This document shows positions 47,713 through 55,121 of a stretch of DNA of 64,000 bases, one piece after another. Where the stretch lies: NCBI GenBank assembly GCA_965277265.1, contig CBDICF010000002.1, positions 274,449 through 338,448 of the forward strand. Direction: 5' to 3'. The notes below the pieces were generated by a model. That model ran no database searches. It saw only the letters and a program-made list of their open reading frames with translations, and was not told the DNA's origin. This stretch comes from Edaphobacter sp. Its GTDB lineage: Bacteria; Acidobacteriota; Terriglobia; Terriglobales; Acidobacteriaceae. The position numbers were made by a program, and so were the translations under genes. The stretch's first letter is position 1, and each line of letters begins with the position of its first letter.

Positions 47713-49605
47713 ATGGCCGACTACATCTATCTGCTAGAGAACCGACTTTCGAAAGCACAGCAGTCCTCGTTGAAAACGGTACGGGATGTCGCACGTTCCA
47801 AAGGACTTACCGTATTCCTGGTAGGCGGTGCGGTGCGTGATCTGACCAGCGGCTCGCCGGTTCGTGATCTTGATCTGGTGGTTCAAGGAAATGCTCTCAA
47901 GATAAAGAAAGATATAGAGAAAGCCGGCGGATTCGTAACCGGGGAGTCGGAGGCAGGACAGGCACTTTTTGTTCGGTTCCCGGGTGGCGTTCGGATGGAG
48001 ATTGGAAGCACTCTGTCGGTTACATATCCCAAGCCGGGGAAGCCGGTGGTGAAACCTGCGACGATCCTGGAGGATCTGCGACGGCGGGACTTTACGGCGA
48101 ACGCCATGGCGCTGTCTCTGAACGACGGCTCCTATGGATTATTGATGGATCCCCTGAACGGGGTAGCGGACATTGAAAATCGCGAGCTGCGGCTGGTGAG
48201 CAACTACGGATTTATCGAAGATCCGGTTCGGATGATCCGGGCGGCGCGCTATATGGCGCGGCTGGGGTGGCATATGGATGAGAAGACCCTGGCGAGATAT
48301 GAGACAGGAAAGTCCGAAGGGTACATCTCGGCGATGGGGGAGTTCCACCGCGGATACGAGACGGAGGAAATCTTCCACGAAGAAGACCCTTTGCGGGTGC
48401 TGAGGCGGCTGGAGGCAGAGGGATGGATGAAGCAGCTGTTTCCGGCGCTGTCGGCAGCAAAGGCGAACGTGCCGGAGCTGGAGCGGCTGCGGGAGAGCCA
48501 GACACAGCTGCAGATGCAAGGCATCCATCCTGAAGCGGCGGTGGCGAACTTCCCTCTGCTGACCGCTAAGATGACGCCCGCGGAGATTACTGCTCTGAAG
48601 CAGGGGTTCGCTAGACAGGGGTTTGTGACGGAGATTGAAGCGTTGGAGGGTGAGGCAAAGGAGTTTGCAGCGCAGTTTTCCGCCAGGACCGCGGCGTCAC
48701 CATCGCAGGCCTGGAAGCTGCTGCACTCGGCCAAGCCGGAGGCTGTCCTCTGGGTGGCTCATACCAGCAAGAACGCGGCAGTCCAGACGAAGTTCAAGGC
48801 CTTCTACACGGAGTGGCCGCAGGCAAGACAGCGGCTGCCCTATGCACTGATGCAGGAGATGCGGATCGTTCCCGAGCTGCCTGAGTACGATGAGCTTCTT
48901 GACAAGCTGTTTTTCGAGTTGATGGATGGGAGGTTGGGAACTGCGGAGGAGATGAAGGCGTATCTGGAGCCGTATTCGCCGCCGGCACCCCCGCCCGCCG
49001 TACACCTGCGCCGTCCGAGAGCGCCAAAGAAGGATGCCAAGCCTGCGAAGAGCCGCAAGAAGGCAGTCGTTGCGGAGACGGTAGAGACTGGGGTGGAAGG
49101 CGTTCCTGGCGATGTCGGCGAGGCGGCTGCAACTGCTCCTGCGGCCAAGGTTGAGAAGGGCGCCCCTACGGCAAAGGCTGTTGCAGCCAAGGTCATTCCA
49201 ACAAATGCAGCGCCTCCGGCTAAGAAGGTTTCGGTGACGAACGTTCCGGCGAAGACTGCTGCGAGGAACTTACCTGCCCCGGTCAGGAAGGCGGCTGCAC
49301 CGGCAAAGACTGCCTCCAAGGCCCCGGCGAAGAAAGCTATCGCGGTAAAGAGCGGCGCGAAGAAGTTGGGCGCTGGGACTCCGGGGAAGAAGACCGCGTT
49401 GAAGGCTTCGTCTTCCACGAAACAACCGGCGGCAAAGGCAACATCAAAGAAGACCGGCGGTAAGACGAATCTGAAGAAAACTCCTGCGAAGGCGATTGCG
49501 AAGAAGGTTGCGACGAAGAGCGCTCCCGCGAAGAAGAACGCGACTCCAGCGACGAAGAGCGCGAAAAAGAAGCCTGTAAAAGCAGCGGGCAAAAAGGCGC
49601 GGTAA
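47713..49605 (+). CDS. CCA/A-adding tRNA nucleotidyltransferase-family protein with a Lys/Ala/Pro-rich C-terminal tail
   Basis: VGGAVRDL..RDLDLVV, DLRRRDFTANAMA, EDPVRMIRAAR class II motifs; last ~200 aa are low-complexity K/A/P. Confidence 0.85.
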   Translation: MADYIYLLENRLSKAQQSSLKTVRDVARSKGLTVFLVGGAVRDLTSGSPVRDLDLVVQGNALKIKKDIEKAGGFVTGESEAGQALFVRFPGGVRMEIGSTLSVTYPKPGKPVVKPATILEDLRRRDFTANAMALSLNDGSYGLLMDPLNGVADIENRELRLVSNYGFIEDPVRMIRAARYMARLGWHMDEKTLARYETGKSEGYISAMGEFHRGYETEEIFHEEDPLRVLRRLEAEGWMKQLFPALSAAKANVPELERLRESQTQLQMQGIHPEAAVANFPLLTAKMTPAEITALKQGFARQGFVTEIEALEGEAKEFAAQFSARTAASPSQAWKLLHSAKPEAVLWVAHTSKNAAVQTKFKAFYTEWPQARQRLPYALMQEMRIVPELPEYDELLDKLFFELMDGRLGTAEEMKAYLEPYSPPAPPPAVHLRRPRAPKKDAKPAKSRKKAVVAETVETGVEGVPGDVGEAAATAPAAKVEKGAPTAKAVAAKVIPTNAAPPAKKVSVTNVPAKTAARNLPAPVRKAAAPAKTASKAPAKKAIAVKSGAKKLGAGTPGKKTALKASSSTKQPAAKATSKKTGGKTNLKKTPAKAIAKKVATKSAPAKKNATPATKSAKKKPVKAAGKKAR

Positions 49606-49621: not shown

Positions 49622-49840
49622 TCAGCGGTGACGTTTGAGGAGAATGAGCGAAGTGAGAAAAAGGCCCCCGGCGGTGATGACCATGAGCAGGATAGCGCGG
49701 CGGTAGGCTGCCTGGGTGGCCGGTGGCGTAGCGGCGGTGTTGTCGCGGCACTGGGTGCAGCCCTGCGCGTGAAGTTGCGGGGGCTGGAGGGTGAACAGGA
49801 CCAGGGCTAAAGGAAGGATAGCTGGTCTCAGTAAGCCCAT
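49622..49840 (-). CDS. Small CxxC membrane protein at the end of the cox operon
   Basis: Signal peptide, QGCTQCRD, C-terminal TM helix and KRHR. Confidence 0.6.
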   Translation of the reverse strand: MGLLRPAILPLALVLFTLQPPQLHAQGCTQCRDNTAATPPATQAAYRRAILLMVITAGGLFLTSLILLKRHR

Positions 49841-49895
49841 CCCGCGAAATCGGTGCATGTGGTACCCGTTCTCTGCCGTTCGTGTGCCGGCTGGT

Positions 49896-50669
49896 TCATT
49901 GGAAGAAGGCTAAAAGCGCGAAGAGAAATAGCCAGAGCAGTCCCATGGCGTGCCAATACCAGGCGGCTCCGTCGACCATGATCTGGCGAGTCTCCAGGCT
50001 GCGCGAGACGTAAAGGCCGACGAACGCGGCGAGAAGGGCGACCAGGCCGAGGATGAGATGGAAGGCGTGGACGCCGGTAATGAGATAGAAGAAATGGCTG
50101 CTCTGATTGGTGCTGAAGAAGACATGCTGGACCGCGAGTTGCCGCCAGGCGACCCACTGGCCTGCGAGGAAAAGCATGCCCAGAGCGACGGATGCCGAGA
50201 GCCAGGGCAGAGTTCGGCGGGTGATTGGCTTGCCGAGACCCAGCCACTCGTCCATGACGTCGTGTTCGCGGAACATCTGACGGCGGGCAATCTCCATGGT
50301 GACGGAGCTGAGCAGGAGTACGGCGGTGTTGAGCCAGAGGATGGGTGGGATGGCAGTGGGGAGCCACTCGTTGACGTACCGGTTGTAGGCGTCGAAGTGA
50401 CCGGAGGACTGGTTGACGAAGAAGGTGCTGACGATGGCGACGAAGAACATGAGGTCGCTCGCCAGGGCAAAGAAGATGCCCATGCGGTAGCGTCGCAGCC
50501 GCTCGTGCGGGCCTCGGCTTCCCCGGGCGCGATCGTTCCAGTTGTCGTTATCGCCGCCGCCGCCGGTGCGCTTGTCGGTGGGGGGACGCCGGCCGGAGCC
50601 GTGGTCGTGGTCTTCGACGCGACGCTTTCGGTCCTGCTCGGTTCTGCTTGGCGTGATGGTTGCTGGCAT
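49896..50669 (-). CDS. ctaE: Cytochrome c oxidase subunit III
   Basis: LASDLMFF, NTAVLLLSS, FYLITGVHAFH, YWHAMGLLW. Confidence 0.88.
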   Translation of the reverse strand: MPATITPSRTEQDRKRRVEDHDHGSGRRPPTDKRTGGGGDNDNWNDRARGSRGPHERLRRYRMGIFFALASDLMFFVAIVSTFFVNQSSGHFDAYNRYVNEWLPTAIPPILWLNTAVLLLSSVTMEIARRQMFREHDVMDEWLGLGKPITRRTLPWLSASVALGMLFLAGQWVAWRQLAVQHVFFSTNQSSHFFYLITGVHAFHLILGLVALLAAFVGLYVSRSLETRQIMVDGAAWYWHAMGLLWLFLFALLAFFQ

Positions 50670-50704: not shown

Positions 50705-52546
50705 TTACTCCGGTTTCAGGTCTGCGGTGTTGTTCGGAACCCACTGCGGAAGGAAAATGTCCCCGGCTGGCGTGATGCGGTAGTCGCAAGGTGCTCGATG
50801 GACGGAGATGGAATCAACCTTAATCTGATAATCGGATGCAGGATCGGGGTGCAAAGGCTCTATGGCTGCGGCTGACATTACGTTGGCCGCTGGGTGCCAT
50901 TCGAGTGTGGTGGCATACCAGGGGTTTTGCGGAGCAAGCGTTCCGCGGAACAGGCTGCGGACGAGGTTGTAGAGGAAGATGAGCTGGCAGGCTGCGAGAA
51001 AGATGGCAGCGTAGGTGATGTGAACGTTGAGGGGGAGGGTGTGGGAAAGGAGCGCGCCTGCGGGGCTGAGGGCTCCGTTTGCACCGGGGATTCCGGTGAG
51101 TTGGGCGTACTGCCGGGGTTCGCCGGCGAGGCCCGTGAGATGCATGGGGAGGAAGACCGCGTAGGCCCCGAGCAGGGTGGTCCAGAAGTGAACGCGGCCG
51201 AGTCGCTCGGACATAAGGCGTGGTGGTTGGCCGAGCGCTGAGGTGATGAGCGGGAACCAGTAGTAGGTTCCGGCGTAGAGTCCGAAGATGCCGGCCATCG
51301 CCATGATGAGGTGGAAGTGGGCGACGACGAAAAACGTATTGTTGAGGTACTCGTCGAGAATGGGCTGGGCGAGGATAGGGCCAGTCAATCCGCCGGTAAT
51401 GAAGAGGCTGACGAAGCCGAGGGCGAAGAGCATGGCGGTGGGGAAGACCGGACGTGAGCGCCAGACTGTGGCGAGCCAACTGAGGACCTTGGCGGAGGCG
51501 GGCAGGGCGATGGCCATGGTTGAGATGGAAAATACGGAGCTGGCGAAGGGGTTCAAGCCGGAGACGAACATGTGGTGTCCCCAGACGAGGATGCCAAGGA
51601 AGCCGATGAGAAGTGTCGTCGCGATCATGACGCGGTAGGCGAAGACGGGGCGGCGGCTGAAGTTGGCGAGCAGCATGGAGGTGAGTCCCATGCCGGGAAG
51701 GATGGCGATGTAGACTTCGGGGTGTCCGAAGAACCAGAAGAGGTGAAGCCAGAGAAGAGGGCTGCCGTTGCCCCCGGTGTGGATGGCGCCGTTGACGAGG
51801 TCGCCCGCGGGCAGGAAGAAGCTGGTGCCGGCGTGGCGGTCGCAGAAGAGCAGCAGGATCGCAGCCAGCAAGACCGAGAAGGCCAGAATGCTGAGCAGCG
51901 CGGCGGTGAACCAGCCCCAGACAGTAAGAGGCAGGCGTTCCCAGCTCATGCCAGGGCAGCGGTTGCGGATGATGGTGGTGAGGGTGTTGATGGAACTTGC
52001 GGTGGAGGCGATAGCGAAGAGAGCGATGCTGACGAGCCAGAGGTCCATGCCCTGGCTCTGTCCCGGCCCGGCGCTGGGAACGGCGCTGAGGGGCGGATAG
52101 GCCGTCCAGCCGGAGATGGCCGCGCCTCCGGGGACGAAGGTAGAGCCGAGCAGAGTGATCAGGGCTATAGCGGTGATCCAGAAGCTGGCGGCATTGAGGG
52201 CAGGGAAGGCCATGCGGCGCGCGCCGATCTGGGATGGAAGGATCAGGTTACCGAAGCCGGCCTGCGGTGCGGTGGTGAGGACGAAGAAGAGCATGATGGT
52301 GCCGTGAAGCGTGACCAGAGCGAGGTACTCTTCAGGCAGGATGGGACCGTGGATGGGAAGCGGCAAGTCGGGCCAGACGAGATGGATGCGCATCAGCAGC
52401 GAGAGCATGGTGCCGATCGCGACGGCGATCAGAGCGAGTGAAAGATACTGGAGACCGATGATGCGATGGTCGGTGCTGAAGAGGCGGGAAAGCAGGGCGT
52501 AGGGCTTGCGGATCGGGGTGGAAGAGCTCTTCGGCTGCGAAGTCAT
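50705..52546 (-). CDS. ctaD: Cytochrome c oxidase subunit I, A1 type, with unusual substitutions
   Basis: All six His ligands (LHG, GHPEVY, WGHHM, AHFH) and the cross-link Tyr are present; TDHRIIG, GWTAYPPL. Confidence 0.93.
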   Translation of the reverse strand: MTSQPKSSSTPIRKPYALLSRLFSTDHRIIGLQYLSLALIAVAIGTMLSLLMRIHLVWPDLPLPIHGPILPEEYLALVTLHGTIMLFFVLTTAPQAGFGNLILPSQIGARRMAFPALNAASFWITAIALITLLGSTFVPGGAAISGWTAYPPLSAVPSAGPGQSQGMDLWLVSIALFAIASTASSINTLTTIIRNRCPGMSWERLPLTVWGWFTAALLSILAFSVLLAAILLLFCDRHAGTSFFLPAGDLVNGAIHTGGNGSPLLWLHLFWFFGHPEVYIAILPGMGLTSMLLANFSRRPVFAYRVMIATTLLIGFLGILVWGHHMFVSGLNPFASSVFSISTMAIALPASAKVLSWLATVWRSRPVFPTAMLFALGFVSLFITGGLTGPILAQPILDEYLNNTFFVVAHFHLIMAMAGIFGLYAGTYYWFPLITSALGQPPRLMSERLGRVHFWTTLLGAYAVFLPMHLTGLAGEPRQYAQLTGIPGANGALSPAGALLSHTLPLNVHITYAAIFLAACQLIFLYNLVRSLFRGTLAPQNPWYATTLEWHPAANVMSAAAIEPLHPDPASDYQIKVDSISVHRAPCDYRITPAGDIFLPQWVPNNTADLKPE

Positions 52547-53316
52547 GGCGTCGCCTCCCTGCGGTGAGAGGCCAGCCAGGCGTCGAACTGCGTGGGAGAG
52601 ACGACGCGGAGGGTGGCGCTCATGCGGTAGTGGCCGAGGCCGCAGAGCTGGGTACAAAGGATCGCGTAGGTGCCGGGCGCCGTGGGTGTGAAGTGGAGAT
52701 GAACTGTCTGACCAGGGATGGCATTCTGCTTGAGGCGCATCTCGGGGACAGAGAAGCCGTGAATGACGTCCTGTGCGTGCAGGCGGAGGTCTACCTCGCG
52801 GTTGGCGGGGAGGACCAGTTGGGACGATACCTGGTCGTCCGCGGAATGGGGATCGGCGGGATCGAGGCCGAGGGAATTGCCTTCACCGGGAGCGACGAGT
52901 TGGGGGCGGGTGATGCCGAAGGTGGCGTCCGGGCCGGGGTAGCGGAAGTACCAGGCAAATTGGACGCCTGTGACCTCGACCTGTAGGGCGGCGAGGTCGG
53001 CTCCGGTGGTGCGGTTGGCGGCCCAGATGCGCTCCGCCTTGAGAGTGAGGGCGGCGAAGAGGACGGCGAGAGCGGCCAGCGGAAAATATTCAATGCGCCA
53101 GACATGGTTGAATTCCGGGCGGCGCCGGAGGGTAAGACCGATGAGCAGGATGAGGTGAGCGAGTGCGAGGAGGGCGAGCGCGATCCAGAGGTTGAGCAGG
53201 AGATGACGATCGAGCGCGGGACCATGAGCGCTGGCGTCCGCCGGAAGATTCCACCGGGCGAGGAGGATCGCAGCGGTACTGGCGAGCGAGAGCGGTGGGA
53301 TGCAGGAAAGCGTCAC
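52543..53316 (-). CDS. ctaC: Cytochrome c oxidase subunit II (CuA), without a cytochrome c extension
   Basis: Two TM helices, QFAWYFRYPG, DVIHGF, CTQLCGLGHYRM; GTG 53316 lies 6 nt downstream of TATCCT. Confidence 0.88.
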   Translation of the reverse strand: MTLSCIPPLSLASTAAILLARWNLPADASAHGPALDRHLLLNLWIALALLALAHLILLIGLTLRRRPEFNHVWRIEYFPLAALAVLFAALTLKAERIWAANRTTGADLAALQVEVTGVQFAWYFRYPGPDATFGITRPQLVAPGEGNSLGLDPADPHSADDQVSSQLVLPANREVDLRLHAQDVIHGFSVPEMRLKQNAIPGQTVHLHFTPTAPGTYAILCTQLCGLGHYRMSATLRVVSPTQFDAWLASHRREATP

Positions 53317-53556: not shown

Positions 53557-54597
53557 CTAGAAGGGAAGCCGCGCGGTGAAGATGAGGTTGTGGTTGTTGG
53601 CGTGGAAGTCGTTGAGAGCGATCTGTTCGCCGATGCCGAAGGTGAGGCCGAGACCGCGATGGCCGCTCTCGGGTGGGCCGGCCTTGATGAGTGGGACGCG
53701 TCCGACGATGATGCCCGGGGTTGCGTAGGTGGTGTATTTGCCGTCGTTGCTGCCGCCCTTGAAGTAGCTGGAGTTGAACTCAAGCTCCGGCCAGAAGAAG
53801 CGGCCGAAGCCGGAGCTGGCGACGCGGTATTGAAGGGCCGTGTTCCACGCAATGGTTCGCCCCAGACCCTTGGTGTTGGAGATGGGCAATGAGCCGCCGG
53901 CGGTGGTAGTGACGTCGAAGTTCCGCCAGCCCTTGCCAAGCGCGAGGGTGGGGGTGACGACGGCGCAGCAGCTTCCGTTGCCGTTCTTGCCGGTGGGGAC
54001 AGAGGCGGCGAAGAAGGCGGTGATGATGGCGTTGCCGTGCTCTTCGTTGCGGGCGAAGATGCGGTACTTCGAGTTGATGGAAAAGTCGCCGAAGCCGTCT
54101 TTGCTCTTAGGAGCTGAGTGGTCGATGAAGGGCGGCACGTTGAGGAGGATTTCGATGTGGCGTTCGGGGATAAATTCCAGGCCTTTGCCGTTGCCGAGGT
54201 TCCAGGTGGTGTATCGCGACGGCAGAACCTGTCGGACGAGATCGGTGCGGAGCTCCTGCTCCAGGCGTGGTGTAACGAGCACCAGCGGCGTGGCCCAATG
54301 GGGCTGCTGGTTCTGGGTAGCGGTGACGCGAGCTTGATAGCGCGCAATGAAGCCGGCGAAGCCCGTGACGGTGGCGGGAGTGGGGGCGGTTGCGCCGGGT
54401 TGGGCCAAGGTAAGACTGGAGGTTTCCATCATTGCGGGTCGTGCGGCCGTCGAGAAGATAGCTGCGGCGTGCGCAGTCCCGACGGTCTGCTGCGCGGAGA
54501 GTGAAATCGGCGCAAAAAGGGTAGCGACAAGCGCGAAAGCGATCGGGGCACGCGATGCGCTTCTGGCTGGATAGGATAATGGGCTGGTGTTATTCAC
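53557..54597 (-). CDS. Putative outer-membrane beta-barrel protein of unknown function
   Basis: Signal peptide, amphipathic strands, terminal LIFTARLPF (C-terminal Phe); GTG lies 6 nt downstream of TAGTAT. Confidence 0.7.
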   Translation of the reverse strand: MNNTSPLSYPARSASRAPIAFALVATLFAPISLSAQQTVGTAHAAAIFSTAARPAMMETSSLTLAQPGATAPTPATVTGFAGFIARYQARVTATQNQQPHWATPLVLVTPRLEQELRTDLVRQVLPSRYTTWNLGNGKGLEFIPERHIEILLNVPPFIDHSAPKSKDGFGDFSINSKYRIFARNEEHGNAIITAFFAASVPTGKNGNGSCCAVVTPTLALGKGWRNFDVTTTAGGSLPISNTKGLGRTIAWNTALQYRVASSGFGRFFWPELEFNSSYFKGGSNDGKYTTYATPGIIVGRVPLIKAGPPESGHRGLGLTFGIGEQIALNDFHANNHNLIFTARLPF

Positions 54598-54598
54598 G

Positions 54599-54629
54599 AT
54601 TCGATACTAAACGATTTTATGTAACGAAT
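54599..54629. promoter_or_regulatory. Imperfect palindrome resembling a ModE-type operator
   Basis: ATTCGATACTAAA-CGATT-TTATGTAACGAAT, 10/13 arm complementarity; the right arm resembles TATATAACG. Confidence 0.45.
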
Positions 54630-54707
54630 ACCGGCAAGCGGCGTATTTTGACACGAAGGTTCTGAAGGGAGCCGGACTATACTGGCTGCGGATTCAGGAG
54701 GGGTGCT

Positions 54708-55121
54708 ATGGCGGATGTGGATGTTCTGTTGAAGCCGCGGGAGGCAGCGGCGGCCCTTGGGGTAAGCTACGCGACCGTCAAGCAGTGGATTCTGGCGGGG
54801 ACGCTGAAGACAATCAAGACACCGGGAGGCCACCACCGGGTCCCGCAGAGCGCGTTGACGCCGATGATGAAGTCGGCTCCGAAGAAGGAGAAGACAGCCT
54901 CGCGGGAGCGGTTCCGGCAGGTGAGCGGACGGAATCAACTGGTCGGACAGATTGTCGATGTGAAGATCAGCGGGCTGTTGGCGAAGGTGGTGCTCGCGGT
55001 CGGAGACCAGCGGATTACATCAATCATCACAGCGGATGCGGCGCGGGAGATGCAGCTTCGCAAGGGACAGACGGCCGGAGCTCTTATGAAGTCGACCGAG
55101 GTGATGATCGTCCGGGTCTAA
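54708..55121 (+). CDS. MerR/excisionase-type HTH plus TOBE (Mop) molybdate-binding regulator
   Basis: LLKPREAAAALGVSYATVKQW..KTPGGHHR; VSGRNQLVG..ITSIITADA..MKSTEV Mop motif. Confidence 0.85.
   Translation: MADVDVLLKPREAAAALGVSYATVKQWILAGTLKTIKTPGGHHRVPQSALTPMMKSAPKKEKTASRERFRQVSGRNQLVGQIVDVKISGLLAKVVLAVGDQRITSIITADAAREMQLRKGQTAGALMKSTEVMIVRV

Follow-up and report, generated by a model that had tools for sequence, protein, structure and literature searches.

A predicted aa3-type oxidase clade of the Acidobacteriaceae without the entrance aspartate of the D-pathway or the canonical Mg ligands

INTRODUCTION

Arguments about proton uptake and gating in the A-type haem-copper oxidases rest largely on mutating one residue, Asp132 (D132; Rhodobacter sphaeroides numbering). 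Exchanging it for Asn or Ala leaves a few per cent of the activity, and an acid introduced at another site can bring pumping back, as in the R. sphaeroides N139D/D132N enzyme and in second-site revertants of the D135N mutant of Escherichia coli cytochrome bo3. D132 has been described as the essential ionisable residue at the entry of the D-pathway (PMC8239185), and a second paper likewise treats it as an essential entry residue (PMC12901375). Here we describe a cox operon of Edaphobacter sp. (family Acidobacteriaceae) that belongs to a clade in which this position is never Asp. The operon lies in a stretch of 64,000 nucleotides (assembly GCA_965277265.1, contig CBDICF010000002.1, positions 274,449 to 338,448 of the forward strand), which we call the window; all coordinates below are positions within it unless a related locus is named.

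The ba3 oxidase of Thermus thermophilus carries Gln in the CxQxC loop of its CuA site and has no canonical Mg site. Its R100 is the steric equivalent of D132 (PMC12901375, Table 2). A-family oxidases without a K-channel have been described from acidophiles; these have lost K354 and E78 of subunit II and keep D124 (bioRxiv 10.1101/2020.03.01.968255). Members of the Acidobacteriaceae carry several A-type oxidases, stand-alone copies included, which have been treated as ordinary A1 or A2 enzymes (PMC8407424). A-family oxidases themselves are known; an A1 oxidase clade that lacks the entrance Asp and the Mg ligands and has an intact interior appears to be new, as we found no description of a D132-less A1 variant in the literature searched (the coverage was incomplete, and this is absence of evidence only).

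RESULTS

A divergent aa3-type oxidase

The operon is read from the minus strand. It comprises coxB (subunit II, 257 residues; 52543-53316), coxA (subunit I, 613 residues; 50705-52546) and coxC (subunit III, 257 residues; 49896-50669), to which Pfam assigns COX2, COX1 and COX3, respectively; coxC is identified by PF00510 and NF050119. The GTG start of coxB at 53316 was confirmed by a 90%-identical orthologue (P0271; numbers with the letters L, P and X are our own handles). The ATG start of coxA at 52546 overlaps the coxB stop as ATGA; both open reading frames (ORFs) are intact, and the pair is translationally coupled. The coxB product has two transmembrane (TM) helices and a CuA cupredoxin domain, and the coxA product has 12 TM helices and a cytoplasmic C-terminal tail of about 65 residues. 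The coxC product is of the short five-helix form, with a hydrophilic Gly/Asp/His-rich N-terminal tail of about 60 residues, and is 97% identical to its counterpart in the close relative L084.

The coxA product scored 426 bits against PF00115 and 527.2 bits against TIGR02891 (CtaD; cut-off, 670.75), and the coxB product scored 124.6 bits against TIGR02866 (CoxB; cut-off, 147.7). NCBIfam ranks CtaD_CoxA and CoxB first, both under their equivalog cut-offs, which accounts for the generic public names "cbb3-type subunit I" and "cupredoxin domain protein." The best PDB matches of the coxA product were A-type COX1 chains (E values of 1e-104 to 1e-90), with no B-type subunit I among its 41 PDB matches at E ≤ 1e-20. 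Six His residues, H81, H275, H324, H325, H410 and H412, correspond to R. sphaeroides H102, H284, H333, H334, H419 and H421. Two of these bind the low-spin haem, one binds the high-spin haem, and three bind CuB. The product has E277 and the Asn ring, which speaks against the B family, and of the features that define the A1 type it has GHPEVY (residues 274 to 279) and the inner D-pathway residues and lacks the entrance Asp. In subunit II, the CuA ligands H186, C221, C225, H229 and M232 are present and are kept in all 119 subunit II orthologues compared. Acidobacteria oxidases have been labelled caa3-type (PMC8407424); no CxxCH haem c domain was found in the query subunit II or in related Acidobacteriota subunits II. 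By these sequence features, the locus is predicted to encode a divergent aa3-type, CuA-containing A-family haem-copper oxidase without a haem c domain.

Loss of the D-pathway entrance with an intact interior

Residue equivalences come from HMMER alignments, without gaps, to chains in the PDB that represent plant, mycobacterial, R. sphaeroides and Thermus subunits, and conservation was counted in the 120 best subunit I matches (cluster representatives; 534 core positions) and in 119 subunit II sequences. The alignments paired garrmafp with gapdmafp, lnntff with lhdtyy, geprqy with gmprr, pasak with ptgik, and ctqlc with cselc or caelc. They bear out the equivalences that an initial annotation of the window had drawn by eye, and the motifs and codon coordinates that it listed are all present in the sequence. 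Arg110-Arg111 of GARRMAFP (52214-52219, minus strand; Arg111 codon, 52214-52216) correspond to R. sphaeroides residues 131 and 132, and no Asp falls at the D132 position.

The D132 position was never Asp in the 120 orthologues, nor was it in five deeper members of the clade. It was occupied by Arg in 43 orthologues, Ser in 38, His in 21, Thr in 8, Gln in 4, Gly in 4, Ala in 1 and Asn in 1, making it the 14th most variable core position. This variability indicates that the selected trait is that the side chain is no longer required, not Arg itself; the loss of Asp reported in the initial annotation is thus real, whereas Arg is not a conserved replacement for it. Arg at either 131 or 132 was found in 119 of the 120 orthologues (Fisher test, P value = 2e-9, uncorrected for phylogeny), and loop II-III is without Asp or Glu in all but one of them. 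When position 111 was compared with every other column by mutual information, the signals were weak and driven by phylogeny, and no partner was convincing.

Past the entrance, most canonical residues are in place. His275, Glu277 and Tyr279 of GHPEVY (51710-51724, minus strand), equivalent to a CuB ligand, E286 and the cross-linked Tyr, occur in 120/120 orthologues, and the inner D-pathway residues Y34, N100, N118, N187 and S181 (Y33, N121, N139, N207 and S201 in R. sphaeroides) are invariant or nearly so; the S200 position is Ala in the query. The K-pathway retains K353 (K362), S290 (S299), Y279 (Y288) and, at its entrance, Glu76 of subunit II (RIEY; 53089-53091, minus strand). In the PASAK motif (Ala350 to Lys353; 51488-51499, minus strand), Lys is kept in 120/120 orthologues and the T359 position is Ala in 120/120, so the absence of T359 claimed for the query is a property of all of them.

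At the start of TM1, Asp26-His27 (52466-52471, minus strand) correspond to R. sphaeroides residues 25 and 26, with His in 120/120 and Asp in 114/120 orthologues; the pair is a candidate alternative proton acceptor at the mouth of the D-pathway. In simulations of the R. sphaeroides enzyme, H26 is hydrogen-bond-connected to D132 and N139 (PMC10341450).

Two deeper members of the clade, L004 and L009, carry Glu for K362 and Ser for N207, and L009 also has an insertion of about 17 residues in loop II-III. Their sequences may reflect the loss of both canonical proton pathways or errors in metagenome-assembled genomes (MAGs).

The Mg/Mn site and the exit side

Next, we looked at the ligands of the Mg/Mn site, which in R. 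sphaeroides are H411 and D412 of subunit I and the Glu (E254) of the CxExC motif of subunit II. Asn402-Asn403 of YLNNTFF (51338-51343, minus strand) are the equivalents of H411 and D412, and Gln223 of CTQLC in subunit II (52648-52650, minus strand) is the equivalent of E254, both by HMMER alignment. In Glu476-Pro-Arg478-Gln479 (GEPRQY; 51110-51121, minus strand; Gln479 codon, 51110-51112), R481 is kept, R482 is replaced by Gln, and Met479 is replaced by Glu.

Two of these changes are general: D412N is fixed in 120/120 orthologues, and the change of Glu to Gln in subunit II (CxQxC) is fixed in 119/119. The two others that the initial annotation had listed with them, H411N and R482Q, are present in the query and peculiar to its sub-branch. 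H411 is kept in 107/120 orthologues and is Asn or Tyr only in that sub-branch (13 sequences); the R482 position is His in 105/120, including the main clade, and Gln in the query's sub-branch (about 15 of 120). The two changes occur together in 13/13 members of the sub-branch, which is consistent with two His residues acting together and probably reflects one evolutionary event. From the aligned residues, the canonical Mg/Mn ligand set is judged to be dismantled: D412 and the subunit II Glu are gone and, in the query's sub-branch, so is H411.

The matching changes in the two subunits had been read as coordinated with the loss of D132. The matching itself holds; the losses of the Mg site and of D132 are separable, because the sister of the clade (L003) already has Gln in subunit II (CNQLC), so that this change predates the clade, and because several lineages that keep D132 have lost Mg ligands independently (L014, L040, L027, L031, L062, L064 and L072). 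In these, the subunit II Glu is replaced by Gln or Gly together with D412A/H. Furthermore, in subunit II of Bacteroidota loci (L024-L047), Lys stands where the Mg-ligand Glu would be (CNKIC), and subunit I keeps HD. As far as ligand residues tell, loss of the Mg site alone is not rare. The loci L027 and L031, from Acidobacteriaceae MAGs, represent a paralogue family with D132, Val or Ile at the K362 position, and H-A plus CTQLC at the Mg site.

A monophyletic clade under purifying selection

The 120 best subunit I matches are 74 to 81% identical to the query, and those that are named come from Granulicella, Edaphobacter and Tunturibacter. The five deeper members (L019, L001, L002, L004 and L009), from Acidobacteriaceae and Terriglobus MAGs, are 57 to 68% identical. 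In a neighbour-joining tree, the D132-less clade was monophyletic (bootstrap, 100/100) with a long stem. Its sister L003 (bootstrap, 98/100) has Glu at 132 and keeps HD and RR, and the next relatives beyond L003 are canonical Acidobacteriota enzymes with GAPDMAFP, HD, RR and CAELC. The gene order pdxT, coxB, coxA, coxC, small ORF, PolyA_pol, DUF6982, lpxD is conserved in relatives, as seen in Tunturibacter psychrotolerans (CP132942; locus L081), in Granulicella sp. L60 and in a close relative. The operon is vertically inherited in the Acidobacteriaceae.

We estimated the ratio of nonsynonymous to synonymous substitution rates (dN/dS) between the query and its 90%-identical relative L084, where dS was unsaturated (0.39 to 0.45). 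The ratios were 0.116 for coxA, 0.127 for coxB and 0.038 for coxC, compared with 0.058 to 0.212 for eight flanking housekeeping genes; relaxed selection, which would have spoken for a decaying copy, was not found. Of the core positions, 42% do not vary among the 120 orthologues, and this set includes every catalytic residue and every residue of the inner D-pathway and the K-pathway. The proposal that this is a selected variant and not a product of random decay is thus upheld by monophyly, conserved synteny, the invariance of these residues and dN/dS ratios like those of the neighbours.

To place the clade among its wider relatives, we used the 150 best representatives of 50% identity clusters, 131 of which aligned at position 132: 107 had Asp, 6 had Glu and 18 had another residue. 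Leaving aside fragments that belong to this clade, all of those 18 also lack inner D-pathway residues, E286 or K362. Among these 131 representatives, the combination of a lost entrance and an intact interior is confined to this clade.

Other changes specific to the clade

We compared the clade with its outgroups to find further clade-specific changes. On the negative side of the membrane (N-side), it has lost PPPHDNF, a segment that follows TM12 and includes the counterpart of R. sphaeroides H549, and carries K433L; it has gained E/D203 in loop IV-V and D572. On the positive side (P-side), it has gained about ten Asp, Glu or His residues in all, E399, E476, H238 and D168 among them, and an 11-residue insertion in loop XI-XII. 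Subunit I ends in Lys-Pro-Glu-COOH (50708-50716, minus strand), following a linker of variable length and sequence. This terminus is KPE in 119/120 orthologues and NPE in the other, and the C-terminal Glu is also found in 4/5 deeper clade members and in the sister L003.

A C-terminal His, by comparison, is present in 118/120 members of the canonical sister family (Sulfotelmatobacter-like; P0391-P0510) and in about half of the other Asp-bearing loci, across several phyla. Subunits I ending in His occur in many phyla outside the Proteobacteria and include many from Bacteroidota, Gemmatimonadota, Binatia and Blastocatellia (loci L005-L010, L016, L020-L026, L030-L039, L045-L047, L055, L057, L061, L063, L064, L066 and L070).

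Four candidates for clade-specific features were rejected. The Gly/Asp/His-rich N-terminal tail of subunit III is also found in canonical sister operons, which likewise have a small CxxC ORF; Asp25-His26 (R. sphaeroides numbering) and the substitution of Phe for the electron-entry Trp in subunit II are both lineage-wide.

The small ORF and the neighbourhood of the operon

Downstream of coxC lies a small ORF of 78 codons (49622-49858, minus strand) that encodes a signal peptide, a GCTQC motif and a C-terminal TM anchor. Relatives follow coxC in L081-L084, L019, L001 and L002 (L081, 12747-13040; L082/L083, 12621-12833; L084, 12648-12863) and likewise in the canonical loci L003, L005, L006, L010, L012, L014 and L040, with lengths of 70 to 97 residues across loci. 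They share an invariant AQGC(T/S)QC, a short Pro/Thr stretch, QAAYR and a TM anchor with a basic tail; a Pfam search of the small ORF gave no match. Judging from these motifs, the product could be a fourth subunit or a Cu/thiol-handling assembly factor of Acidobacteriota aa3 operons.

The rest of the window holds housekeeping genes, including those for IleRS, UvrA, iPGM, LpxD, PdxT, thymidylate kinase and a P450, and no respiratory gene besides the cox operon was found in it. The operon is a stand-alone coxB-coxA-coxC-small-ORF unit outside respiratory super-operons. With a canonical Acidobacteriota CtaD as query, the matches were all Ca. Sulfotelmatobacter/Acidoferrales-like proteins, 93 to 97% identical, and none lay on contigs of the D-less genomes; co-occurrence of this operon with a canonical paralogue is suggested by the literature (PMC8407424). 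A promoter and terminator scan of the locus gave no signal exceeding the shuffled expectation. A 346-codon ORF upstream of coxB (53557-54597) was considered as a member of the operon and rejected, as it is absent from that place in L081, L082 and L084.

That ORF is one of two extra genes that the window has between pdxT and coxB (53557-55121) relative to L084, L081 and L082. It encodes a signal-peptide protein without a Pfam match, and the other, divergently oriented, encodes a 137-residue HTH_17 plus TOBE (molybdate-binding-type) regulator. In Tunturibacter and Granulicella, a one-TM ORF of 67 codons stands immediately upstream of coxB (L081, 8996-9199; L082, 8980-9183), and the 240-bp spacer in front of coxB in the window showed no equivalent of it. 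L081 has a Phenol_MetA_deg-type outer-membrane protein gene a few kb upstream of its cox operon. The PolyA_pol-head gene (CCA-adding or poly(A) polymerase-like; 47713-49605, plus strand) neighbours the cox operon in all relatives examined, and its product has a Lys/Ala/Pro-rich, histone-H1-like C-terminal tail of about 190 residues.

The only runs that carry the query sequence (X1-X4) are assemblies of metagenomic DNA, in which depth is even across genes and spacers. Within coxA, one low-depth contig of X1 joins the ends of the segment 51331-51564, omitting 232 bases, and several metagenome contigs break at 51558 and 51588 and run on into unlike sequence. Most likely, assembly cross-talk at the conserved HHMF region, among strains or among paralogous oxidases, accounts for this, and not a real deletion.

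DISCUSSION

The mouth of the D-pathway is dismantled in this clade, with both D132 and the PPPHDNF segment gone. Weighing the conserved residues, we lean towards a working O2 reductase that would use the inner D-pathway through a non-canonical entrance. The inner pathway is probably still in use, because drift would otherwise be expected there, of the kind found in the other lineages that lack an acid at 132. O2 reduction would continue through E286 and the water chain of the D-pathway, with protons entering by a mouth built from the invariant His27 and Asp26 at the start of TM1. The cytoplasmic acids E/D203 and D572 and the terminal KPE carboxylates may add to this mouth, and the obligatory Arg at 131/132 would hold them. 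The enzyme would probably take up protons more slowly than canonical enzymes do, and the pumping stoichiometry may be normal or reduced. On the P-side, D412N, the subunit II Glu-to-Gln change, R482H/Q, M479E, E399 and the loop XI-XII insertion would re-wire the region above the haem propionates through which water and protons leave, and no Mg would be bound there. A more specific arrangement, which we regard as speculative and improbable, has the KPE terminus folding back onto Arg131/132 as a proton-collecting entrance delivered in trans, which would sustain E286-based chemistry and possibly full pumping without a carboxylate in the canonical mouth; the C-terminal His of canonical enzymes would be an ancestral form of this device.

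Several observations weigh against a non-canonical entrance that feeds the inner pathway. Asp26 and His27 are not a compensation specific to the clade, because canonical relatives have both. In the deeper members L004, L009 and L019, the N121 and N207 positions and even K362 (K362E) have drifted, which hints that the constraints on the channels are weaker in parts of the clade. The AlphaFold2 model of subunit I (75-sequence alignment) had a mean predicted local distance difference test score of 62, with the C-terminal tail below 50, which is too poor for the candidate replacement acids and the tail to be placed.

The most serious alternative, which we hold to be possible though unlikely, is an uncoupled or low-stoichiometry oxidase. 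Its D-pathway would be kinetically crippled, chemical protons would arrive mainly by the K-pathway or by a P-side leak, and the enzyme would pump little or not at all; working alongside the main oxidases (bc1-A1 or alternative complex III (ACIII)-A2), it would serve to scavenge O2 or to keep the redox balance. It would agree with the finding that loss of D132 abolishes pumping in laboratory mutants (PMC12901375), with the B-type-like states of the enzyme (Arg at the D132 equivalent, Gln in the CuA loop of subunit II and no Mg site) and with the stand-alone position of the operon; in strain KBS 83, moreover, extra "single homologues" of A-type oxidases were not among the continuously expressed ones (PMC8407424). 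However, E286 and the Asn ring are invariant in the 120 orthologues, whereas other D132-less lineages have lost them, and selection on the cox genes is as strong as on the housekeeping genes. The P-side changes alone (D412N, Glu to Gln and R482H/Q) might instead be an adaptation to an acidic periplasm that has nothing to do with the loss of D132, an idea compatible both with a non-canonical entrance and with an uncoupled enzyme. We hold this to be rather unlikely. The clade occurs only in acidophilic Acidobacteriaceae of soil, swaps of carboxylate for amide are isosteric, and Mg ligands were lost independently of D132 in the seven lineages named above, all of which would fit; yet the P-side gains of the clade are unlike a simple removal of acid-titratable groups, and canonical Acidobacteriota relatives of similar habitats keep HD and CAELC.

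Two further explanations have very little probability left. The scores under the NCBIfam CtaD and CoxB equivalog cut-offs could be taken as signs of a decaying, non-functional paralogue or of a sequencing or assembly artefact, which is effectively refuted by the intact, translationally coupled ORFs, the low dN/dS of all three cox genes, the invariance of the six His ligands, Tyr, Glu and Lys in 120 orthologues and the recurrence of the same states in independent genomes and metagenome contigs. A divergent family with altered proton pathways might also carry out different chemistry, such as NO reduction, as in the nitric oxide reductase families derived from oxygen reductases. Those enzymes reportedly alter active-site or CuA features, whereas this family retains the full O2-reductase set of three CuB His residues, the cross-linked Tyr of GHPEVY, E286 and CuA electron entry, and such a change is effectively excluded.

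With E286, the Asn gate and the K-pathway kept despite the loss of D132 and the Mg site, the clade offers a natural experiment on proton uptake and pumping. It is abundant in soil, it includes cultivable genera (Granulicella, Edaphobacter and Tunturibacter), and it has long been without D132 and the Mg site; it therefore bears on the contribution of the Mg site and on the need for an entrance carboxylate, for which other surface groups might be able to stand in. In addition, genome-based accounts of the energy metabolism of Acidobacteria treat these genes as ordinary "low-affinity A1 proton-pumping oxidases."

Compared with the A1 aa3 enzymes of R. sphaeroides and Paracoccus denitrificans (1M56, 1AR1 and 1QLE), the query has the same ligands of haem a, haem a3 and CuB in a 12-helix subunit I, and it shares GHPEVY, Asn121, Asn139, Asn207, Tyr33 and Ser201, Lys362, Ser299 and the entrance Glu of subunit II, as well as a CuA subunit II and a subunit III. 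It differs in being without Asp132 or any acid in loop II-III and without the Mg ligands H411, D412 and subunit II Glu, in carrying T359A, S200A and R482Q, and in having a five-helix subunit III and a C-terminal tail that ends in KPE; the identity is only about 37 to 40%. Laboratory entrance mutants share with the clade the missing entrance carboxylate in an otherwise intact D-pathway. The state of the clade, in contrast, is natural, fixed and long maintained; it adds Arg at 131/132, a new acid in loop IV-V and the KPE terminus, and no Asp has moved into the Asn ring.

The Thermus thermophilus ba3 enzyme (1EHK) has neither E286 nor the Asn ring, and its K-pathway analogue is a different one, whereas the query keeps the A1 interior and aligns far better to A-type chains (E value, 1e-104) than to any of the B type. 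The K-channel-less acidophile oxidases are its mirror image: both are natural A-family lineages in which one canonical proton pathway is disabled at a key residue, and in the query it is D124/D132 that is lost and the K-pathway that is kept. The canonical Acidobacteriota aa3 operons (L005-L010, L020 and L046; P0391-P0510) are of the same type as that in the window, down to the small CxxC ORF, the QFxW of subunit II and the Gly-rich N-terminal tail of subunit III, at about 53% identity, but, unlike the query, they have GAPDMAFP, HD, RR, CAELC, PPPHDNF and a C-terminal His.

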